Assembly: GCA_038144595.1 (NCBI GenBank)
Contig: JAYQOB010000004.1
Span: 300,611-364,610 of the forward strand
DNA: 64,000 nucleotides
Source of the DNA: Candidatus Poseidoniales archaeon
Lineage (GTDB): Archaea; Thermoplasmatota; Poseidoniia; Poseidoniales; Poseidoniaceae
Direction of reading: 5' to 3'
Part shown: positions 981-36,538 of the stretch, one piece after another
How positions within the stretch are numbered: the stretch's first letter is position 1
How the letters are laid out: the number at the start of each line of letters is the position of its first letter
Position numbers and translations under genes: made by a program
Notes under the pieces: generated by a model
What the model was told of the DNA's origin: nothing
The model's input: only the letters and a program-made list of their open reading frames with translations
The model's database searches: none

Positions 981-3578
981 TCAATCATGCTCAGTGCGTT
1001 CGCCTTCCAGTGGAGCATCATCGCCCCGAGCAGATGGTTTGTTGACACTCGTTTCTCGTTTCAACACCCGTTCAATTTCAGTGAAAATTTTGTCCAACAA
1101 CACCGGACCCCACCCACGCTGAGCGAGAAGCGCCGATCGTTGCTTGGACGACATGCGGAGCACATCGTTCGGTTCTCGCATGCCCAACGCTGCAAGTTCT
1201 CGGGCACGTTGTCGTCCGACATGGCGGATGTTGACAAGCTGCAAGAGATCGGTCTTGCACCCGTGTCGTACGCGTTGCTGGAGGGTACTGATGCGCTGAA
1301 CGAGGTCGGCGACCACAGGAAGGTGCTCGTCAGCAAACACATCATCGGTCAGCAAGACTTGTTGGGCTCCAGCCAAGAGCCAACCCATCAAATCGATACG
1401 GTGATGAACATCCCCCGGGAGAACATCCAACTCCTTCTCCAGTTGCCGCAACGTGGTCTCTTCGGTCCATTCTTCCACCATCCAAGCGGATTTGATATCG
1501 CTGAGCATCGCTTCTGCATAGCCCGGCTCGACGAGGAGTTCATCCTCGGTTGCGTTGGCCTTCAACCAGGTGGGTGAATTGACTTCAAAATCGGCTGATT
1601 TTGCCCACAATGAAACAAAATCTGGTGTGGCAACCGCCAGATGGAGGAAGCCAAAATCAGAGACAGGTGCATCCTTTCGAACACAACGGCGGACTGCCCT
1701 GCGGAGCCCACGCCGAAGAATGGAAGCCGAGAGGGGGTCGAGGTACAATTGTGTGACACGTTCACCCATGGCCGTGGCCTCGTAGCGCATGTCGGGGCCG
1801 TCTTCAGCGACCGGTTGAACCCAACCACCCGTTTGCTCGAGTGAAGTGGCCCTTGAGAAACCGAAGGAAGGCGTAAGATGGGCGCTGCTCGCACGTTGGA
1901 GAGGCTTGGCCCCAGGTCGTTCCGGTTCCCAGGACACGCCTTGCGTGTGATGGGCGCTGGTGGCCCATGTTGGCACCGTGTCATCCCACGCTTCATCTTC
2001 GTCAACGGACGCATTGGCCCATGAGGGCGTGAAATGTTCATCCGGACCGCATCGCCGGACAAAACGCTCCTCAACCAGCCAATCGAGCATGCTCGTGAGG
2101 CGTTCCTTCAATTGGGACGGGGGCATGGAGGCCCCGAGGAAGGTGGATGAAAAGAAGTGCTCAATGGACCCCTTGTGGACGAGACCCCCCGTTGCGATGC
2201 TGGCAAGGACATGCATGCGGAGCGCGGGTTCGGAAGCCAATTTGGAAGAGATGTCTTCGATCGGGCCGAAGAAGTACCGATTAGACACTGCATCGGCCAC
2301 CTCCCATCCGTCCGTACCCTTGCAGTAGACCCAGGCTTCTCCTTTGGTGTCGTACTTTGGCCGCCCCGCACGACCGAGCATCTGACGCACTTCCATGACA
2401 GGCAATGGACGACTCATCCCGTCGTCCCACCGCTTGAGGTCTCGCACCAAGACGCGCCTCGCTGGAAGATTCACGCCTGCTGCCAAGGTTGGTGTGGCGG
2501 TCAGGGCCACCAACAGGCCATCCTTGAACGCCGCTTCCACATCCTTCCGCTGGGCGTTGGTGAGGCCTGCGTGATGAAAGCCGACCCCCGAGGACAAGCA
2601 GGCGGCCAACTGCTCGGCAAGGTTGGATTGGCTTCGACCGGTCAACTTCTCGCCGACTTCCTTGAGCCTCGCCAATCGTTCGGGGTCTTCTTTTTCGAGG
2701 CGTTTGCTAACTCGTTTTGCCAGGTTCTTCGCCTCGGATTGAGCACTTCTGCGCGTCCCAACGAACATCAACACCTGCGCACCCTGCGTCAGGCCGTCGT
2801 CCACGACGCTCCACACCGGATGACTCTTCAGGCCCTCAAGGTCCCGGGGCGGGCTCAATGTCCCGTGATCACCTTCGTCGCCCGGGGATTGGATTTTGCG
2901 CGGTTCAACGTGAAAATCGTGGAACGTAGCGTACTCAAGCGCGACCGGGCGCCAGTCGGATTGAATCAACGTCGCATCAAGCCACGTAGCAAGGTCCTGA
3001 GAGTTGCCGACCGTGGCCGAAAGCGCAATGATTTGCGCATCGGGTTTGATGTGGCGAAGGCGGGTCAGGTTGATTTCCAATGTTGGACCGCGGGTCCCGT
3101 CGTTCATCAACTGAAACTCATCCGCTACGACACAGCATACATCCGACACCAGCTCGGCGCGGTGACGCAGCAAAGAATCCAGCTTTTCGGAGGTGCACAC
3201 CAGGATGTTGCAATCGTCGATGTTTTTGGCTTCCGCTGTCGCATCGCCAATGCCCAGGCCCACGGACCAGCCCATGGCACCAGCGATGGCGCTCAAATCC
3301 TCATATTTCTCCATCGCCAGCGCCTTGAGCGGCACGATGTAGATGGCCTTTGAGCGTGAATGGCCCTCGGAAATTCGTTTGACCATGCCCATGTAGGCAA
3401 GAAGTGACTTCCCGGAAGCCGTGGGGATCGCCACCAACGTGTTGTCGCCCTTGAGAATGGACGGTGCGGCTTCAGCCTGCGGCGGGTGGAGCTGTTGAAT
3501 TCCCCATTCGTCGGTCAAGAACTTCGTAAAGCGAGCCGGCAACCCCAGCGATGAAACCGCCCGTTTTGCCACCTCCAT
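981..3578 (-). CDS. hel308: Hel308/Ski2-type ATP-dependent DNA helicase
   Basis: 865-aa ORF with Walker A AIPTASGKS, DExQ box VVADEFQ, motif III LSAT and HHAGL. The Ski2/Hel308 domain order is present, with a roughly 100-aa low-complexity insertion. Confidence 0.9.
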   Translation of the reverse strand: MEVAKRAVSSLGLPARFTKFLTDEWGIQQLHPPQAEAAPSILKGDNTLVAIPTASGKSLLAYMGMVKRISEGHSRSKAIYIVPLKALAMEKYEDLSAIAGAMGWSVGLGIGDATAEAKNIDDCNILVCTSEKLDSLLRHRAELVSDVCCVVADEFQLMNDGTRGPTLEINLTRLRHIKPDAQIIALSATVGNSQDLATWLDATLIQSDWRPVALEYATFHDFHVEPRKIQSPGDEGDHGTLSPPRDLEGLKSHPVWSVVDDGLTQGAQVLMFVGTRRSAQSEAKNLAKRVSKRLEKEDPERLARLKEVGEKLTGRSQSNLAEQLAACLSSGVGFHHAGLTNAQRKDVEAAFKDGLLVALTATPTLAAGVNLPARRVLVRDLKRWDDGMSRPLPVMEVRQMLGRAGRPKYDTKGEAWVYCKGTDGWEVADAVSNRYFFGPIEDISSKLASEPALRMHVLASIATGGLVHKGSIEHFFSSTFLGASMPPSQLKERLTSMLDWLVEERFVRRCGPDEHFTPSWANASVDEDEAWDDTVPTWATSAHHTQGVSWEPERPGAKPLQRASSAHLTPSFGFSRATSLEQTGGWVQPVAEDGPDMRYEATAMGERVTQLYLDPLSASILRRGLRRAVRRCVRKDAPVSDFGFLHLAVATPDFVSLWAKSADFEVNSPTWLKANATEDELLVEPGYAEAMLSDIKSAWMVEEWTEETTLRQLEKELDVLPGDVHHRIDLMGWLLAGAQQVLLTDDVFADEHLPVVADLVQRISTLQQRVRHGCKTDLLQLVNIRHVGRQRARELAALGMREPNDVLRMSSKQRSALLAQRGWGPVLLDKIFTEIERVLKRETSVNKPSARGDDAPLEGERTEHD

Positions 3579-3666
3579 ACCGCCTCATATCGGGCAGCGG
3601 TTCAAAAGGACAACGCCCCCTCTTTGTTGCCGACACTTAGAAGTCCCACCTGTGCGTGGTCAAAGC

Positions 3667-4284
3667 ATGAGCGACGAACGAGATGCCATGGTCGAGGAAC
3701 GTCTTTCGGTGTTTGATGACGAGCCCGACCTCAACGACTGGGTCGAGGTCATGTGCGGCGCCGCCATGGCCGTGTTGGGGATCTTTCACTTGGTCGAGCC
3801 GGGCAACCTTGTCGACCCGGACATCATGCGATGGTTTGCCGCTGCCGTGGTTGCCGCAGGAGCGGTGTGGGCTGGCCACGGACTCAAAGACATGGCCGTC
3901 AAGGAAGTCCGCCGCTCCATCGCCCTCCTCGACATGGTCAACAACGACCAGGGCGTTGACACAGGCTTGATCCGAGACGTCCTCCTCAACCAAGAAGCCT
4001 ACAAGGAATTCTTGGTCCACGCCTATGATTCTGCCTGGGAGGATGGCGTGATCACGGAAGCGGAACTCAGGGAACTCAAATCGTTCCAAGAGGCGCTCGG
4101 CATCAGCGACCAAGAAGCCGCTGATTTGAACGTCAAGGCCGCCATCAAATCCGCAGCGGCTGATGGAGAAATCACCGCTGACGAGGCCAAATCCATCGAG
4201 GCTGCTGCCAAGGCCGCCAACATGACGGAGTCAGACACTGCGAAGGCGGTCAGCGACGAGCTTGGGAAAACCGAAAGCAACTGA
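3667..4284 (+). CDS. hypothetical 2-TM membrane protein with TerB-like helical C-terminal module
   Basis: ATG at 3667; the track ORF begins at an alternative start at 3652. Two hydrophobic helices (GAAMAVLGIFHLV, WFAAAVVAAGAVWAG) are followed by EDGVITEAELRELKSFQEALGISDQEA. Confidence 0.5.
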   Translation: MSDERDAMVEERLSVFDDEPDLNDWVEVMCGAAMAVLGIFHLVEPGNLVDPDIMRWFAAAVVAAGAVWAGHGLKDMAVKEVRRSIALLDMVNNDQGVDTGLIRDVLLNQEAYKEFLVHAYDSAWEDGVITEAELRELKSFQEALGISDQEAADLNVKAAIKSAAADGEITADEAKSIEAAAKAANMTESDTAKAVSDELGKTESN

Positions 4285-6357
4285 TCAGGCCCATTGGTCG
4301 GACCCCGGGGCATATTCACGGGCCAGTGCTTCCGCCTTTGACTTGCGTTGAACCTCCACCCATGTGGCCAACAATCCAAGGGTCACACCGACCATCATCA
4401 GCCCGCCACCGTACGGGACGAATCCATCGGCGCTTTGAATTCCCCAAGAGGGCGGGATATCTCGGCCGTCAAAACCTGTGGACGGTATGAAATTCACGTC
4501 GAGTAGATCAAGATCACAATCGCATAACGAGATGGTGATTCGCTCGGGGAACAGGGCCGATTGAAGCCGAACCCAATCGTTGGCATCGACCGTTGATGGG
4601 CGAGTGGCCCATGCAGGTGATGCGAGCGAGCCGCTGGCCGGCGCAGCAATCATCTCGGCATCGATGTGAAAGACCGAGGACGACGGTGCGTCATCGACCA
4701 CCAACATCGCTTCGAGCATCATGAGATCGAGCACCAAGGAACGGCTTGCAAGGAGAATGAATCGGACGGTTTGCGCCTCAAGCATCCCTTCCTGCGTGGT
4801 GTAGGTCTGACCTTGAGCCACTTGACCGAAGATGGCCTGGTCCAAACGGAACGAATCCAGTTCAGGCACCACTAGTTGCCACCGACCATCATCAAGAGGG
4901 ATGGCTTGGTCAATGTCGAGTTTGAGTTGAAGACGCTCCCCGGCCAACATGCCCCAGGTCGCTCCTGTGTGGGTCGCAAGCGTTTGCTCGGGCACACCCT
5001 CAGCAGATACATCCCAGAGTTGCTTGAGCCGCATGTCGATGAGCTCATCGACGGTGATCTCCTCGGGATGCTGAACTTGGTTGTACATGACCACGGCGGG
5101 ATTGAGAACCCCGCCGACGACCAGCAGGAGGACGCCCGGTACAAACAAGCCGAACCGGACACCGTACGCAGTTGTCGGACGAAAGGCGACGAACGTGAAC
5201 GCACCAAGCATCAGAAGCGACACCAACAACAACCCGACGCCTTGGTTGTCCAGGTCAACTGAATGGTCGAGGCTTCCAACGAGGCCCGTGCCCTGCGGGT
5301 AGTAACTTGCGGCGGTAAATTCTGTGGGGTCGGTCGGACCCGTCCCTTCGTATCCAAAAACACCCGTCCATGCATAAGGCTGGATTTTCTCCGGTGAACC
5401 GTGCATGCACAGGGTGTAGTCGCCGGTCGGAAGGGCTCGCCAGCGGTAGGTGATGCGCAGGGATTCGCCATCATCGTCGACCACGACTTCTGGAGTGGGT
5501 GAGAGCCTTCCAGCAGCGGTGATCAAGTCGGGAATTGGATGTGGCTGCTCAATTTCAATGGGGACGACTTCCCATTCCACCAACAAGCGGAGCACTTCGT
5601 GAGATTCTATTTCGAAGGCCCAGCAATCGTGGTCCGCACCCACCAACGCACCTCGGTGAACATCCTCGAATGACGTGGCAACCGGTTGTGTTCGGGACGA
5701 GGGTTCGTCCATGTTCACTTGGGCTGCGTCCATCGACCACTGGACGTCCAGTTGAAGAAACGAGGCACCTCGCATGTTCAGCGACCATGTTCCCGGTCGG
5801 TCAAGGGTCACCGTGATCAGCAATCGGACGCTCGCTTCCTCCCAGAGCACCCTGCCAGCCGACGTGTCGAGGGGTTCATCCTCCAGCAGGTACGGCGAAG
5901 TCGCCATCTCAGGAAGTGTGCTCGCCTCGAAGGACCACTGGTTGACGTTCTCACCGAGGATCAAGCGAACATCCATTGCTGGGCGAAACAGGCTCCCTGA
6001 CTCGGTTTGATGTTTGAAATCGATTTCGAGGACATCCAAGAATTCAGGCAACAGGGCGATATGATCTTGACTCGGGCTCATGATGAATTCGAAGACGACG
6101 GTTTCGGGCTGCACGATGTTGGCAAAGGTCTGGTCGGAAATCTGTTCCTCACCGACCGGCGTGGGTGAAAGGACACAATCGTTGTCTTCAAGGCACGACA
6201 GGAACAAGTCGCCCTCTTCTTTGGTCAAGCCTGCGGAAGCAGCCGGGACGAACGGTTGAGCCAACAAGGTCAGCAGGCAAGCGATGAACACGGCGCATCG
6301 CAGAGGGCGAGCCGACACCTGCTTCATCGAGCAGAGGGTTGAGTCGCAGTATTTCAT
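4285..6357 (-). CDS. hypothetical secreted/membrane protein (690 aa)
   Basis: Signal-peptide-like N-terminus (RCAVFIACLLTLLAQPFVPAASA), central TM helices (GLLLVSLLMLGAFTFVAF, FGLFVPGVLLLVVGGVL) and a C-terminal TM helix. ATGA overlap with the upstream SprT-like gene. No recognisable catalytic motif. Confidence 0.6.
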   Translation of the reverse strand: MKYCDSTLCSMKQVSARPLRCAVFIACLLTLLAQPFVPAASAGLTKEEGDLFLSCLEDNDCVLSPTPVGEEQISDQTFANIVQPETVVFEFIMSPSQDHIALLPEFLDVLEIDFKHQTESGSLFRPAMDVRLILGENVNQWSFEASTLPEMATSPYLLEDEPLDTSAGRVLWEEASVRLLITVTLDRPGTWSLNMRGASFLQLDVQWSMDAAQVNMDEPSSRTQPVATSFEDVHRGALVGADHDCWAFEIESHEVLRLLVEWEVVPIEIEQPHPIPDLITAAGRLSPTPEVVVDDDGESLRITYRWRALPTGDYTLCMHGSPEKIQPYAWTGVFGYEGTGPTDPTEFTAASYYPQGTGLVGSLDHSVDLDNQGVGLLLVSLLMLGAFTFVAFRPTTAYGVRFGLFVPGVLLLVVGGVLNPAVVMYNQVQHPEEITVDELIDMRLKQLWDVSAEGVPEQTLATHTGATWGMLAGERLQLKLDIDQAIPLDDGRWQLVVPELDSFRLDQAIFGQVAQGQTYTTQEGMLEAQTVRFILLASRSLVLDLMMLEAMLVVDDAPSSSVFHIDAEMIAAPASGSLASPAWATRPSTVDANDWVRLQSALFPERITISLCDCDLDLLDVNFIPSTGFDGRDIPPSWGIQSADGFVPYGGGLMMVGVTLGLLATWVEVQRKSKAEALAREYAPGSDQWA

Positions 6358-34357: not shown

Positions 34358-34440
34358 ACCTCCACGCCGCACTAAGTCTCTGCTCAAGGGCCGTGAAACC
34401 CCCAAAGAGAGCAGAAAAATTGGTGAGTGTTTATTGTTTA

Positions 34441-34448
34441 TTTTTTTT
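34441..34448 (+). terminator. oligo-T tract (T8), candidate archaeal terminator for the gcvH-like/hpt unit
   Basis: A T8 run lies 84 nt after the hpt stop and is preceded by the 7-bp inverted repeat TCTGCTC (34379-34385) / GAGCAGA (34409-34415). Confidence 0.25.
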
Positions 34449-34470
34449 GTTGGAATCTATCAAACAATGC

Positions 34471-34477
34471 TTTATTA
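34471..34477 (+). promoter_or_regulatory. candidate TATA box (TTTATTA) for the 2-TM protein/rhodopsin unit
   Basis: TTTATTA ends 24 nt upstream of ATG 34501, inside the only strongly AT-rich stretch of the window. Confidence 0.4.
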
Positions 34478-34500
34478 GGCGACGACCTAAGAATTTCGAC

Positions 34501-35511
34501 ATGAACTTTAACATCGTTACGAACATTACCCAACAGGTGTGCCAAACCGATGTGGAAGACATCCGTGAGGTCTATCTTGAAGCCATCTGCGTCCTTGCTG
34601 AAGCATCGACCTCTTTTATTCTGAAACTTGACGGCGGCAAGGCGAAAGTCGTCCGCTCAACCCTTCCGAGTTTACTCAACGTCTCGCTCAAAAGCGACTC
34701 CATCCGATTGGAGGACGATTCCTTTTGCCTGACGGAAGATGAGTTGGCGGCGTGGTCGGCCCTTCCCCCGGTGAGTGACGGGCGCATCAAATCCATCGTC
34801 CTGCGACGATTCACCGTTGGTTCAGAAGGGTACGTCGCTTGTGCTGGTTCCTCTCAAGTCGGCGCCTTCAACCAGGACATCTGCGACCAATTCAACTGGA
34901 CGGCCCCGTTGGGCGCCCACACCATCCGGTTGATTCGAAACTCTGCCAAAAACGAGCGTGAGAAGCGAGACCTCCTCAAAGAGATGGAGGTCATCAAGCA
35001 GGAGTTGGCCGGCGCCCAATCCGCAGCCGACCAACTCGAGGGGTCAAACGCCCAGCTTTCCAACGCTCTTCTCGAGGTATCGAGCGCCAAAGCGCAATCA
35101 AAGGCGCTGCTGCTGACGGTTGGCATCGGTATCATTCTCTTCGCCATCTCAGAATTCCGAATCGAGCCTTGGCTTGAAGCATCGGGCGTCTCCCCTTCCA
35201 CCTTGATCTACCAAAAAGTCCTGATCCTCGGAGGGCTGGTGCCCATTCAGGTGGTCGTTGAACGCTTTATCTCCTCGAAGGTGAACTCCAACGCTTCAGC
35301 CATTCGTGTTTCCATGTACGAGGAAGTGCTTGGCGTGCTCCTCGAAGACGGTGCCCTCTCGGAGAAAGAAATCCGATGGCTTGAGCTCTACCGCCGCCAG
35401 CAAGGCATCCTTCGCGAGGAAGCACAAGCGGTTGAGGCCCGCCTGCGGATGATGATGCTCAAAAATCGCCGTCAAAAATTACAAAACAGCCCGTCGGTTG
35501 TCTCTGCATGA
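34501..35511 (+). CDS. hypothetical coiled-coil protein with 2-TM hairpin and TerB-like C-terminal module, co-oriented with the rhodopsin
   Basis: 336 aa from ATG 34501. N-terminal ~150-aa soluble domain, coiled coil (NEREKRDLLKEMEVIKQELAGAQSAADQLEGSNAQLSNALLEVSS), TM1 ALLLTVGIGIILFAISEF, TM2 VLILGGLVPIQVVVERFI, then EDGALSEKEIRWLELYRRQQGILREEAQ. The stop is 13 nt before the rhodopsin ATG. Confidence 0.6.
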   Translation: MNFNIVTNITQQVCQTDVEDIREVYLEAICVLAEASTSFILKLDGGKAKVVRSTLPSLLNVSLKSDSIRLEDDSFCLTEDELAAWSALPPVSDGRIKSIVLRRFTVGSEGYVACAGSSQVGAFNQDICDQFNWTAPLGAHTIRLIRNSAKNEREKRDLLKEMEVIKQELAGAQSAADQLEGSNAQLSNALLEVSSAKAQSKALLLTVGIGIILFAISEFRIEPWLEASGVSPSTLIYQKVLILGGLVPIQVVVERFISSKVNSNASAIRVSMYEEVLGVLLEDGALSEKEIRWLELYRRQQGILREEAQAVEARLRMMMLKNRRQKLQNSPSVVSA

Positions 35512-35524
35512 AGGACGTGAATCC

Positions 35525-36538
35525 ATGAATCAACGCAAATACAGTACCCGTGCTCTCACCGCAACGCTCGTTCTCATTTTGGCTTTGTTGCCAACCGTCT
35601 CGGCTGCGGGTGGCTCGACCTTTGAAAACGGCGACGCAATGACCGGGCTTGAGCGAGTCACGTACATCTCGTTCGTGGCCATCAGCCTGATGTTCATCGC
35701 TGCTGCGTTCTTCTTGTTCATGGAACGCAACGACGTCGCACGCCGCCACCGCCCAGCCATTGGCATCGGCGTGATGATTGTCGGCATTGCTGGGTTCCAA
35801 TACGCCCTCATGCAGGACGTGTACATCGCTGACGGCTCCATCCCCACCGACTTCAGGTACGCCGACTGGTTGACCACCGTGCCTCTGATGGCCGTGACCT
35901 TTGCCGTTCTCGCTGGTCGAGAATCGTTCACCAACCACCGCTTGTTCAGCCTGCCCGGCATGTCGGTACCCGGCATCATCATCGTTGGTTCGTTGTTCAT
36001 GATGATCGGTGGCTACATCGGCCAGGTTGAGCTCGACCAGGCACTGATCGAGGGGGTTGAACCTTCCGGAACACACTGGTTCTTCTTCGCTCAGGGCATG
36101 ATTGGCTACCTGACCGTCTTCCTCATCGTTGGAACCCCATTCTCGGGCTCCTACGGCATCGACGACACCAAAATCGATGACGATTCCATCCGCCAAACCA
36201 TGGATCGCCTCCGCCGACTGGTGCTCTTTGGTTGGCTTATCTACCCTGCAGGCTACGTTGTCGGCGCCCTCGAGTTGGGTGGCGCAGGTGGGGCCGCTGG
36301 CATGATGCTGGTCTACAACCTCGCTGACCTCGTCAACAAGTTGGCCTTTGTTATCATCGTGCTCGTGGGGGCACGAGCCACCGAAGAAGCCCAAGCGGCG
36401 TACGATTCAACCCTCACCCACACACCAACCGTGGCGAAAACCGAGCGAGAGGAAGATGAGGACCACCGAGACAGCCTCCGTGAACTGGCCGCTCTCGCTT
36501 CTGAGATCGCCGATGAAGAGATCAGCGGCGAACTTTGA
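35525..36538 (+). CDS. type-1 microbial rhodopsin, proteorhodopsin-like
   Basis: Signal peptide plus seven TM helices. Helix C FRYADWLTTVPLM, helix F GWLIYPAGY, helix G YNLADLVNK (Schiff-base Lys). The track ORF begins at TTG 35498; the first ATG is at 35525. Confidence 0.9.
   Translation: MNQRKYSTRALTATLVLILALLPTVSAAGGSTFENGDAMTGLERVTYISFVAISLMFIAAAFFLFMERNDVARRHRPAIGIGVMIVGIAGFQYALMQDVYIADGSIPTDFRYADWLTTVPLMAVTFAVLAGRESFTNHRLFSLPGMSVPGIIIVGSLFMMIGGYIGQVELDQALIEGVEPSGTHWFFFAQGMIGYLTVFLIVGTPFSGSYGIDDTKIDDDSIRQTMDRLRRLVLFGWLIYPAGYVVGALELGGAGGAAGMMLVYNLADLVNKLAFVIIVLVGARATEEAQAAYDSTLTHTPTVAKTEREEDEDHRDSLRELAALASEIADEEISGEL

Follow-up and report, generated by a model that had tools for sequence, protein, structure and literature searches.

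In the htr–sop arrangement, the transducer gene lies directly upstream of the gene for the sensory rhodopsin in one operon. The same order was found in a 64,000-nucleotide stretch of DNA from a Candidatus Poseidoniales archaeon (GenBank assembly GCA_038144595.1, contig JAYQOB010000004.1, positions 300,611 to 364,610 of the forward strand), hereafter the window, where a gene for a 336-aa membrane protein, termed the partner, at 34501–35511 is followed by a rhodopsin gene at 35525–36538. That the latter encodes a microbial (type-1) rhodopsin is clear from fold, Schiff-base Lys and Pfam profile, which all fit. From sequence comparison, gene context and predicted structures, the two genes are read, with a probability of roughly 55%, as an operon of a light sensor and a membrane-bound, Che-independent transducer.

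Several described rhodopsins resemble the window pair in part; in the following, three-letter motifs give the residues at positions 97 (proton acceptor), 101 and 108 (proton donor position) of green proteorhodopsin (GPR). Haloarchaeal sensory rhodopsins I and II (SRI/SRII) with HtrI/HtrII share with it the gene order, a transducer that crosses the membrane by two helices and has large parts in the cytoplasm, a donor position without a carboxylate, and a co-existing pump paralogue. They belong to a different rhodopsin clade (bacteriorhodopsin-like, as opposed to proteorhodopsin/DTK) and carry an aromatic Tyr/Phe donor signature (PMC10519204), whereas Thr, Ser, Met, Val, Cys or Leu was found in the window family; furthermore, the Htr transducers contain HAMP and methyl-accepting chemotaxis protein (MCP) domains, which the window partner lacks, the window host is without Che genes, and the window rhodopsin has a long acidic tail. 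The bacterial Proteo-SRs, sensors that are related to DTK pumps and carry Met at the donor position, provide a precedent (PMC10519204). As in the window family, their sensor function was inferred from gene neighbourhood, the donor is non-carboxylate and His75 is lost, and some window-family members also have Met. In Proteo-SRs, however, Tyr replaces the acceptor Asp (Y(T/C)M), Glu142 is kept and the genes lie beside Htr-like and CheA/W/Y genes (PMC10519204), whereas the window rhodopsin keeps its acceptor (Asp114), has lost Glu142, stems from an archaeal host and is accompanied by a partner with a GAF fold and two transmembrane helices. No Htr or Che genes were found at the window-family loci examined.

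FArhodopsins (PsFAR, 9r21/9r23) likewise show a DTT motif, occur as a second paralogue beside a pump and have an adjacent, co-transcribed, dedicated non-enzymatic partner that is membrane-associated (PMC10308929), but they are bacterial (SAR11, HIMB59, Pseudothioglobus), typically carry Thr at 105, are paired with a flotillin and have a reduced retinal pocket. The window rhodopsin has the DTT motif (Asp114, Thr118, Thr125), but the third position varies within its family; membership among the FArhodopsins was rejected owing to Met at 105, no Band_7/flotillin hit and a similarity to FAR 9r23 (E = 6.6e-18) weaker than that to GPR (7.7e-27). The donor-less DTG/DTS rhodopsins are genuine outward proton pumps (PMC8927995) and, as described there, resemble the window rhodopsin in lacking a carboxylate or Lys donor while keeping the Asp acceptor and Thr; they differ as stand-alone bacterial pumps, for which the abstract of that paper notes no conserved partner or tail. 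This comparison was made by described traits. Nearest by score, and from the same host order, are the rhodopsins of Archaea-clade-B (ACB), which are DTK pumps (Iverson MG-II genome CM001443.1, ACB-G35) and which share with the window family a probable signal peptide, Met at 105, an insertion in the C–D loop and an E–F loop of the type GTPxxGxxG(I/V)D.

The rhodopsin gene and its functional positions are as follows (window coordinates, strand, feature).

35525–36538, + strand: rhodopsin gene, 337 aa plus stop codon (translation, profile matches, AlphaFold2 model)
35525–35605, + strand: probable Sec signal peptide, MNQRKYSTRALTATLVLILALLPTVSA, also in ACB relatives (judged from the letters; hydrophobic N-terminus alignable with that of ACB rhodopsin P0052)
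35798–35800, + strand: Gln92, at the position of GPR His75, the His–Asp counterion partner (family comparison, codon checked)
35855–35899, + strand: functional motif of helix C with Arg111, Asp114 (acceptor), Thr118, Met122 (tuning) and Thr125 (donor position) (alignments, codon check)
36023–36025, + strand: Gln167, at the position of GPR Glu142 (comparison of the family with ACB)
36326–36340, + strand: Asp268 (second counterion, GPR D227) to Lys272 (Schiff-base lysine) in helix G, DLVNK (alignment, codon check)
36377–36535, + strand: acidic cytoplasmic tail, residues 285–337, with the amphipathic motif SLRELAALA (consensus sGLLELAAL), an acidic end and a hydrophobic last residue

The 337-aa product was matched by Bac_rhodopsin (Pfam PF01036) at E = 1.7e-31, and its top sequence match among solved structures was GPR 8cqc (7.7e-27). 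An AlphaFold2 (AF2) model, calculated from 24 sequences, yielded a seven-helix bundle (predicted TM-score, pTM, 0.75) with a predicted local distance difference test (pLDDT) above 90 in most of the core and lower in the C–D and E–F loops; against PR, ESR and FAR structures, target-normalised TM-scores of ~0.85 were obtained. Helix C (FRYADWLTTVPLMAVTF vs FRYIDWLLTVPLLICEF) was aligned by HMMER without gaps to GPR and to blue proteorhodopsin (BPR), which placed Asp114 at D97 (proton acceptor), Thr118 at T101, Met122 at L105 (spectral tuning) and Thr125 at E108 (proton donor position). An initial annotation, made from the letters of the window, had arrived at the same D-T-T motif with Met at 105 by eye, and this alignment was borne out; the HMMER alignments likewise gave Thr at the donor position, and the codons of Asp114 (GAC, 35864–35866), Thr125 (ACC, 35897–35899) and Lys272 (AAG, 36338–36340) lie exactly where it had placed the Asp, the Thr and the Schiff-base Lys. 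The correspondence to bacteriorhodopsin (BR) was taken from match ranges (query 110–158 vs chain 81–128) and fits D85, T89 and D96 if the stretch starts ungapped. In helix G, Asp268 aligned with GPR D227 within the motif YNLAD(L/F)VNK (HMMER), and all retinal-pocket residues compared with GPR/BR are kept, namely W115, T118, D268, K272 and the helix F residues W237, Y240 and P241.

Relative to GPR, insertions were found in the C–D loop (131–147), in the D–E region and, slightly, in the E–F loop (alignments, AF2 model), so that the enlargement which the initial annotation had assigned to the F–G loop was misplaced. The strongly acidic extension of about 50 aa that it had described after helix G was recovered as a tail of 53 aa with a net charge of −12; in all tail-bearing members the tail comprises 46–58 aa with a net charge of −8 to −17. 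Its amphipathic motif is conserved, and AF2 placed a low-confidence helix at 313–329.

Xenorhodopsins and Anabaena sensory rhodopsin are marked by replacement of BR D212, e.g. by Pro. An identity as one of these or as an inward pump was rejected because the second counterion, Asp268, is present, and a Na+ or Cl− pump was likewise rejected, its motif being none of NDQ, NTQ and TSA. Antisense open reading frames overlapping the rhodopsin gene (35459–36394, − strand, 311 aa; 35530–36000, − strand, 156 aa) were taken as an artefact of high GC content. An alternative in-frame TTG start at 35498 overlaps the stop codon of the partner gene; homologues favour the ATG at 35525. Regarding the signal peptide, that of ACB-G35 was cut off before modelling in the HeimdallR paper (PMC12137139).

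For delimitation of the family, a word-indexed search of 5.8 billion proteins was carried out and returned 27 close clusters at 54–96% identity, with the next matches at 23–27%; among 1.84 billion representatives at 50% identity, searched exhaustively with phmmer, a single full-length representative of the family was present. The nearest outgroup in phmmer was P0052 (36% identity, E = 6.5e-36), an ACB rhodopsin sharing 84% identity with that of the original MG-II genome CM001443.1; a search with P0052 retrieved 175 ACB loci in metagenome-assembled genomes (MAGs) of Poseidoniales. All ACB figures given for loci, motif, partner and co-occurrence rest on the best 80 of these 175 loci, and the residue comparison on 79 ACB sequences. 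The window rhodopsin is ~33–36% identical to ACB rhodopsins. In neighbour-joining (NJ) trees, the new family and ACB were each monophyletic at 100% bootstrap, with the window rhodopsin outside the ACB clade. By these comparisons the window rhodopsin probably arose from ACB-type DTK proton pumps of Marine Group II (MGII) archaea.

Within these searches the family was found only in Poseidonia (MGII) archaea. It occurs in 6 of 185,579 GTDB species representatives, the hosts being MAGs named Poseidonia sp. (MGIIa), and its clusters are named only 'bacteriorhodopsin' or 'hypothetical protein'. The gene context in the window is archaeal, with Cdc6/Orc1 and diphthamide synthase near the rhodopsin; in the near-identical loci L001–L003, ribosomal protein S6e and aIF2-gamma follow. 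MGII genome surveys describe rhodopsins with Glu or Lys at the donor position, which were inferred to be pumps (PMC6461757, PMC6336850), and since they report only these two residues, the window family lies outside their descriptions. No publication describing the family was found in a literature search for sensory, transducer and photosensor rhodopsins of Poseidoniales. Some family members came from samples whose names suggest a coastal, estuarine or sediment origin (SFB-prefixed MAG names, 'sediment metagenome', JGI, several TARA scaffolds), which hints at a habitat bias. Within the DTK supergroup, another clade (P0075, P0094, P0103, P0113, P0122, P0096, P0081) also has non-ionisable donor positions (DT-I/L/M, then V/I/M/N/L) and may comprise further sensor-like or donor-less rhodopsins.

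Comparison with ACB revealed the loss of several residues of the pump. At GPR position 108, the 26 family members carry Thr (19), Ser (3) or Met, Val, Cys and Leu (one each); the Asp or Glu that the initial annotation had named as contrary evidence was found in none of them, nor was Lys. ACB rhodopsins, in contrast, have Lys at this position in 80/80 fetched genes (D-T-M-K), together with His at position 75 and Glu at position 142 (79/79 each), where the window family has Gln in 25/26 and 26/26 members, respectively. Accordingly, the window rhodopsin shows DTMT rather than the DTMK of the DTK/ACB type, and it has neither an equivalent of Glu108 (Thr125) nor of His75 (Gln92), as DTE proteorhodopsins do. 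The fenestration position (cf. PMC12137139) is Leu in 79/79 ACB sequences vs Phe in the window family. Conserved arginines at the cytoplasmic end of helix F are new to the window family. ACB rhodopsins also lack the acidic tail, and no partner gene was present within 3 kb at any of the 80 fetched ACB loci. All 80 fetched ACB rhodopsins (L016–L095, match at ~3001–3870 in each) have an identical D97/T101/M105/K108 signature. With Phe at the carotenoid-fenestration position, the DTx family is predicted to be non-fenestrated.

The upstream gene, its parts and its surroundings are as follows.

34420–34500, + strand: putative archaeal promoter stretch, AT-rich, with TATA-like CTTTATTA ~30 nt before the ATG (read from the sequence; genome ~58% GC)
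34501–35511, + strand: gene of the partner, a candidate transducer of 336 aa; it immediately precedes the rhodopsin gene wherever a tail-bearing locus has upstream DNA
34501–34893, + strand: N-terminal cytoplasmic domain of the partner with GAF fold, residues 1–131 (AF2, Foldseek)
34900–35100, + strand: long helix of the partner, a signalling helix or coiled coil, residues 134–200 (within a continuous helix 134–228 in AF2; conserved DQLEGxNAQLxNALLEVSSAKAQSK)
35101–35268, + strand: membrane hairpin of the partner, two helices joined by a short extracellular loop, residues 201–256, the most conserved part
35269–35508, + strand: cytoplasmic helical domain at the C-terminus of the partner, basic at its end, residues 257–336 (conserved EDGxLTxxExxWLELYRRQQG)
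35512–35524, + strand: 13-nt spacer between partner stop and rhodopsin start, AGGACGTGAATCC, Shine-Dalgarno-like GGA/GTGA

The short spacer with its Shine-Dalgarno-like sequence implies one transcript; in other loci the spacers measure 4–13 nt, and the sole AT-rich promoter-like stretch at the pair lies upstream of the partner gene. By sequence, no family match of the partner was obtained in Pfam, NCBIfam-type, PADLOC or PDB profile searches. Alignment and structure prediction were based on database homologues. The AF2 model (pLDDT 78.6 overall, ~88–92 in residues 1–131) consists of an alpha/beta domain (1–131), helices 134–228 and 232–282 and two short C-terminal helices. In Foldseek, the N-terminal domain was matched to many GAF domains of phytochromes and sensor kinases (probability 1.00, E = 2e-6 to 1e-4; 6oza at E = 2e-6; 3cit, 3hcy and 3k2n at TMt 0.62–0.67), GAF membership thus being assigned by fold only, with no sequence-level Pfam GAF hit. 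A GAF fold that leads into a long signalling helix is also the build of phytochromes and sensor kinases. Columns 204–255, in the hairpin region, are largely invariant across 16 sequences that are 43–87% identical overall. By the positive-inside rule, both termini are inferred to be cytoplasmic. In all members, the last ~20 residues after the EDGxLTxxExxWLELYRRQQG motif bear a net charge of +2 to +5, and this, set against the −8 to −17 of the tail, suggests charge complementarity between tail and partner C-terminus. The sole lead to its identity was a weak TerB-like motif recognised by eye.

Across the fetched loci, tail and partner gene were found together. A tail-bearing rhodopsin with the partner upstream is present in the window and in L001–L008, L010, L011, L014, L015 and L103 (L009 was excluded from this count, its upstream DNA being too short to judge), and the partner is the sole neighbour conserved in four unrelated contexts (window and L001–3, L004/5, L006/7, L008/9). 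Among the 185,579 GTDB species representatives, the partner occurs in exactly 4, which are the 4 MAGs with a tail-bearing rhodopsin. The tail-less P0019 (L096) has the synteny of its tail-bearing sister P0015 (bootstrap 96%), i.e. SelO, Pirin, a 200-aa paralogue, H-NOX, rhodopsin, a Kelch giant protein and DUF2240, with the partner gene missing, and no remnants of partner or tail were detected in L096 by tblastn. P0022/P0023 (L012, L013) form a separate clade at 100% bootstrap that is both tail-less and partner-less, and the basal P0025 likewise has neither. Tail and partner were lost jointly at least twice independently. This joint loss is the strongest available evidence for the proposal that the acidic tail serves the partner; the docking surface that the initial annotation had seen in the tail gains support from it and from the perfect co-occurrence of tail and partner gene.

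Side observations were made at some of these loci. In L012 the rhodopsin is flanked by a membrane protein of 204 aa, rich in Gly and very acidic in its C-terminal half (5249–5863, + strand), and a gene of the fatty-acid-desaturase family (PF00487; 6939–7919, − strand). A giant protein of ~1,570–1,600 aa with Kelch/beta-propeller and CARDB parts is encoded directly downstream of the rhodopsin in one synteny type, seen in L006 (9039–13811), L096 (7058–11848) and L103 (6148–10851); DUF2240 and an MMPL/Patched-like transporter come next. ARAGORN detected no tRNA genes in the 64-kb window, and no Rfam family reached the gathering score there; the GC content is uniform at 56–60%, without any island-like deviation near the rhodopsin pair.

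The C-terminal half of the partner (coiled coil, hairpin and C-terminal domain) also exists as a separate paralogue of 199–212 aa, which was found only in Poseidoniales (51 clusters), contains a coiled coil and two transmembrane helices, the hairpin of the partner among its parts, and has no Pfam match. It directly follows an H-NOX gene (PF07700) in five contexts, being the invariable downstream neighbour of H-NOX in Poseidoniales, and in several genomes the H-NOX pair stands back to back with the partner–rhodopsin pair. The pairs of H-NOX and 199–212-aa protein are as follows.

L006 5704–6878, − strand: H-NOX and 199–212-aa protein
L014 3722–4896, − strand: H-NOX and 199–212-aa protein
L096 4282–5458, − strand: H-NOX and 199–212-aa protein
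L103 2667–3843, − strand: H-NOX and 199–212-aa protein
L100 1605–2798, + strand: H-NOX and 199–212-aa protein
L101 3429–4618, + strand: H-NOX and 199–212-aa protein

In bacteria, H-NOX is known to be partnered by histidine kinases, diguanylate cyclases or MCPs. The Poseidoniales module resembles these in its position adjacent to H-NOX, which is usual for an effector, but differs in being without a known catalytic or signalling domain. The pair looks like an undescribed archaeal H-NOX signalling pair, and no publication linking H-NOX and Poseidoniales was found in a literature search. Since one module accompanies two unrelated sensors, rhodopsin and H-NOX, its reading as a signal receiver is the simplest. 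A stand-alone GAF gene upstream of H-NOX in L100 was considered as a split GAF domain of the partner and rejected, as it is a PF01590/PF13185 GAF without BLAST or HMM (hidden Markov model) similarity to it. Two genes upstream of the H-NOX pair in L101 (1499–1945, + strand), a 148-aa acidic protein is encoded with two DDE(I/V)(V/I)T(D/E)DE...L repeats that resemble the EDGxLTxxE motif in the C-terminal domain of both partner and paralogue (TerB-like by eye).

A second rhodopsin was not found in the window when all six-frame open reading frames of the 64 kb were searched with the family HMM. On another contig, an ACB DTMK gene is present in at least 4 of the 6 MAGs with the window rhodopsin (CBFIDD01, JAURDW01, JAYQVP01, JAYOHN01; GTDB representatives), the remaining 2 being absent among the ACB matches listed (best 80 of 175), and this co-occurrence rests on MAG binning. 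The window family is therefore not the sole rhodopsin of its cells but an additional, second paralogue. Both the pump elsewhere in the same genomes and the conserved upstream partner gene had been overlooked in the initial annotation, which had left undecided whether the protein is a sensor or a slow pump; the comparative data now favour the sensor, while pumping of the DTG/DTS type is still a live alternative.

For the sensor–transducer pair, the following mechanism is proposed. With Lys272, Asp114, Asp268, Arg111 and the Trp/Tyr/Pro residues of the pocket present, the rhodopsin would still bind retinal. The cytoplasmic proton donor has been lost (Lys → Thr), together with His75 → Gln and Glu142 → Gln, so that the Schiff base, deprotonated by light, would be reprotonated slowly and a long-lived signalling state would result. 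The partner would read this state through lateral contact of its hairpin with the rhodopsin, whose acidic tail would dock onto the cytoplasmic parts of the partner. Poseidoniales are without identifiable chemotaxis genes (PMC6461757), which fits a non-Htr transducer and means that the output could not be the classical Htr–CheA route; as the same module follows the H-NOX gas sensor, the output most likely resides in the shared coiled-coil/hairpin/C-terminal module. Slow photocycle, physical interaction, direction of signalling and output are all inferred here.

Several points weigh against the sensor–transducer pair. It was deduced from sequences, genomes and predicted structures. The partner has no HAMP, MCPsignal, kinase or cyclase domain in Pfam searches and no recognisable output domain. 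The window family appears to be sister to the ACB DTK pumps, but on weak support, the two joining inside the wider DTK group at a bootstrap of 56%; the two MAGs without a listed ACB match and the reliance on binning likewise count against the argument from a resident pump. Arg111 (GPR Arg94), Asp114, Thr118 (Thr101) and Asp268 are all intact, and the three tail-less, partner-less lineages keep an otherwise intact rhodopsin, which therefore has some partner-independent activity. Finally, the direction could be the reverse, with the GAF domain regulating the rhodopsin.

The main rival reading is a slow donor-less outward proton pump (like DTG/DTS or ESR K96A), to which the upstream GAF membrane protein would be an accessory that regulates, stabilises or localises the rhodopsin; the GAF domain, a classical ligand-binding input, might respond to a metabolite and so control pumping, information then passing from partner to rhodopsin. 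We consider this unlikely, though it deserves serious weight. Transducer-free haloarchaeal sensory rhodopsins show weak pumping. In favour of the pump, the acceptor Asp114 as well as Thr118, Arg111, Asp268 and Lys272 are intact, the closest relatives are pumps, donor-less DTG/DTS rhodopsins pump protons (PMC8927995), and the stand-alone activity of the tail-less, partner-less members could be weak pumping. Against this, at least 4 of the 6 MAGs possess a conserved DTMK pump besides, three ionisable residues of the pathway were replaced and not one, Met, Val and Leu, which would obstruct proton uptake along a water path, are tolerated at the donor position, and the partner module is common to the H-NOX sensor system, as expected of a signal receiver rather than of a regulator of pumping.

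A structural or membrane-organising role like that of the flotillin-associated rhodopsins, perhaps on behalf of the co-resident ACB pump and with little or no photochemistry, is improbable. DTT is the hallmark of FArhodopsins, which are pump paralogues co-transcribed with a membrane-associated partner (PMC10308929), a DTT rhodopsin gave neither pigment nor pumping in E. coli (Olson et al., as reported in PMC10308929), and the long coiled coil and hairpin of the partner are loosely scaffold-like. The window rhodopsin is, however, nearer to GPR and ACB than to FAR (9r23 6.6e-18 vs GPR 7.7e-27), has Met and not Thr at 105 and retains all compared residues of the retinal pocket, and its partner, without a Pfam hit to SPFH/flotillin, carries a GAF domain of the signalling type. 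A decaying or neutral paralogue, i.e. a drifting duplicate of an ACB-type pump with a hitch-hiking upstream gene, would agree with the variable donor position and the rarity of the family (6/185,579 GTDB species representatives vs 175 ACB loci) but is largely refuted by conservation data and hardly credible, given intact open reading frames at 54–96% identity in many samples, many fixed family-specific residues, survival of the pair through at least four genomic rearrangements at 4–13 nt spacing, a conserved tail motif, and loss of partner and tail together and not independently.

MGII are the most abundant planktonic archaea of surface waters and are uncultured. MGII surveys find no chemotaxis genes, and a photosensor with its own transducer would, if the reading as a sensor–transducer pair is correct, be a first handle on environmental sensing and signalling in MGII; with the bacterial Proteo-SRs it would also be one more sensor that has DTK pumps as relatives. 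Rhodopsin sensors that have a cognate transducer are already known; new here would be the rhodopsin family, the planktonic MGII host, the probable ACB-type origin, a transducer architecture common to the H-NOX system and a dedicated docking tail, if the tail indeed docks. Two unrelated sensors, rhodopsin and H-NOX, appear to be served by the transducer module, and the joint disappearance of tail and partner in nature indicates a likely interaction surface. As an optogenetic scaffold, a rhodopsin that cycles slowly and docks by a tail could be attractive. Taken together, and put forward as a tentative proposal at slightly less than even chances, the window pair may represent the first sensory rhodopsin of planktonic marine archaea, docked by its tail to a new Che-independent class of transducers, a membrane device in which light sensing and gas or redox sensing would meet and whose coiled-coil/hairpin/C-terminal module may be a general sensor receiver of Poseidoniales that also serves H-NOX.

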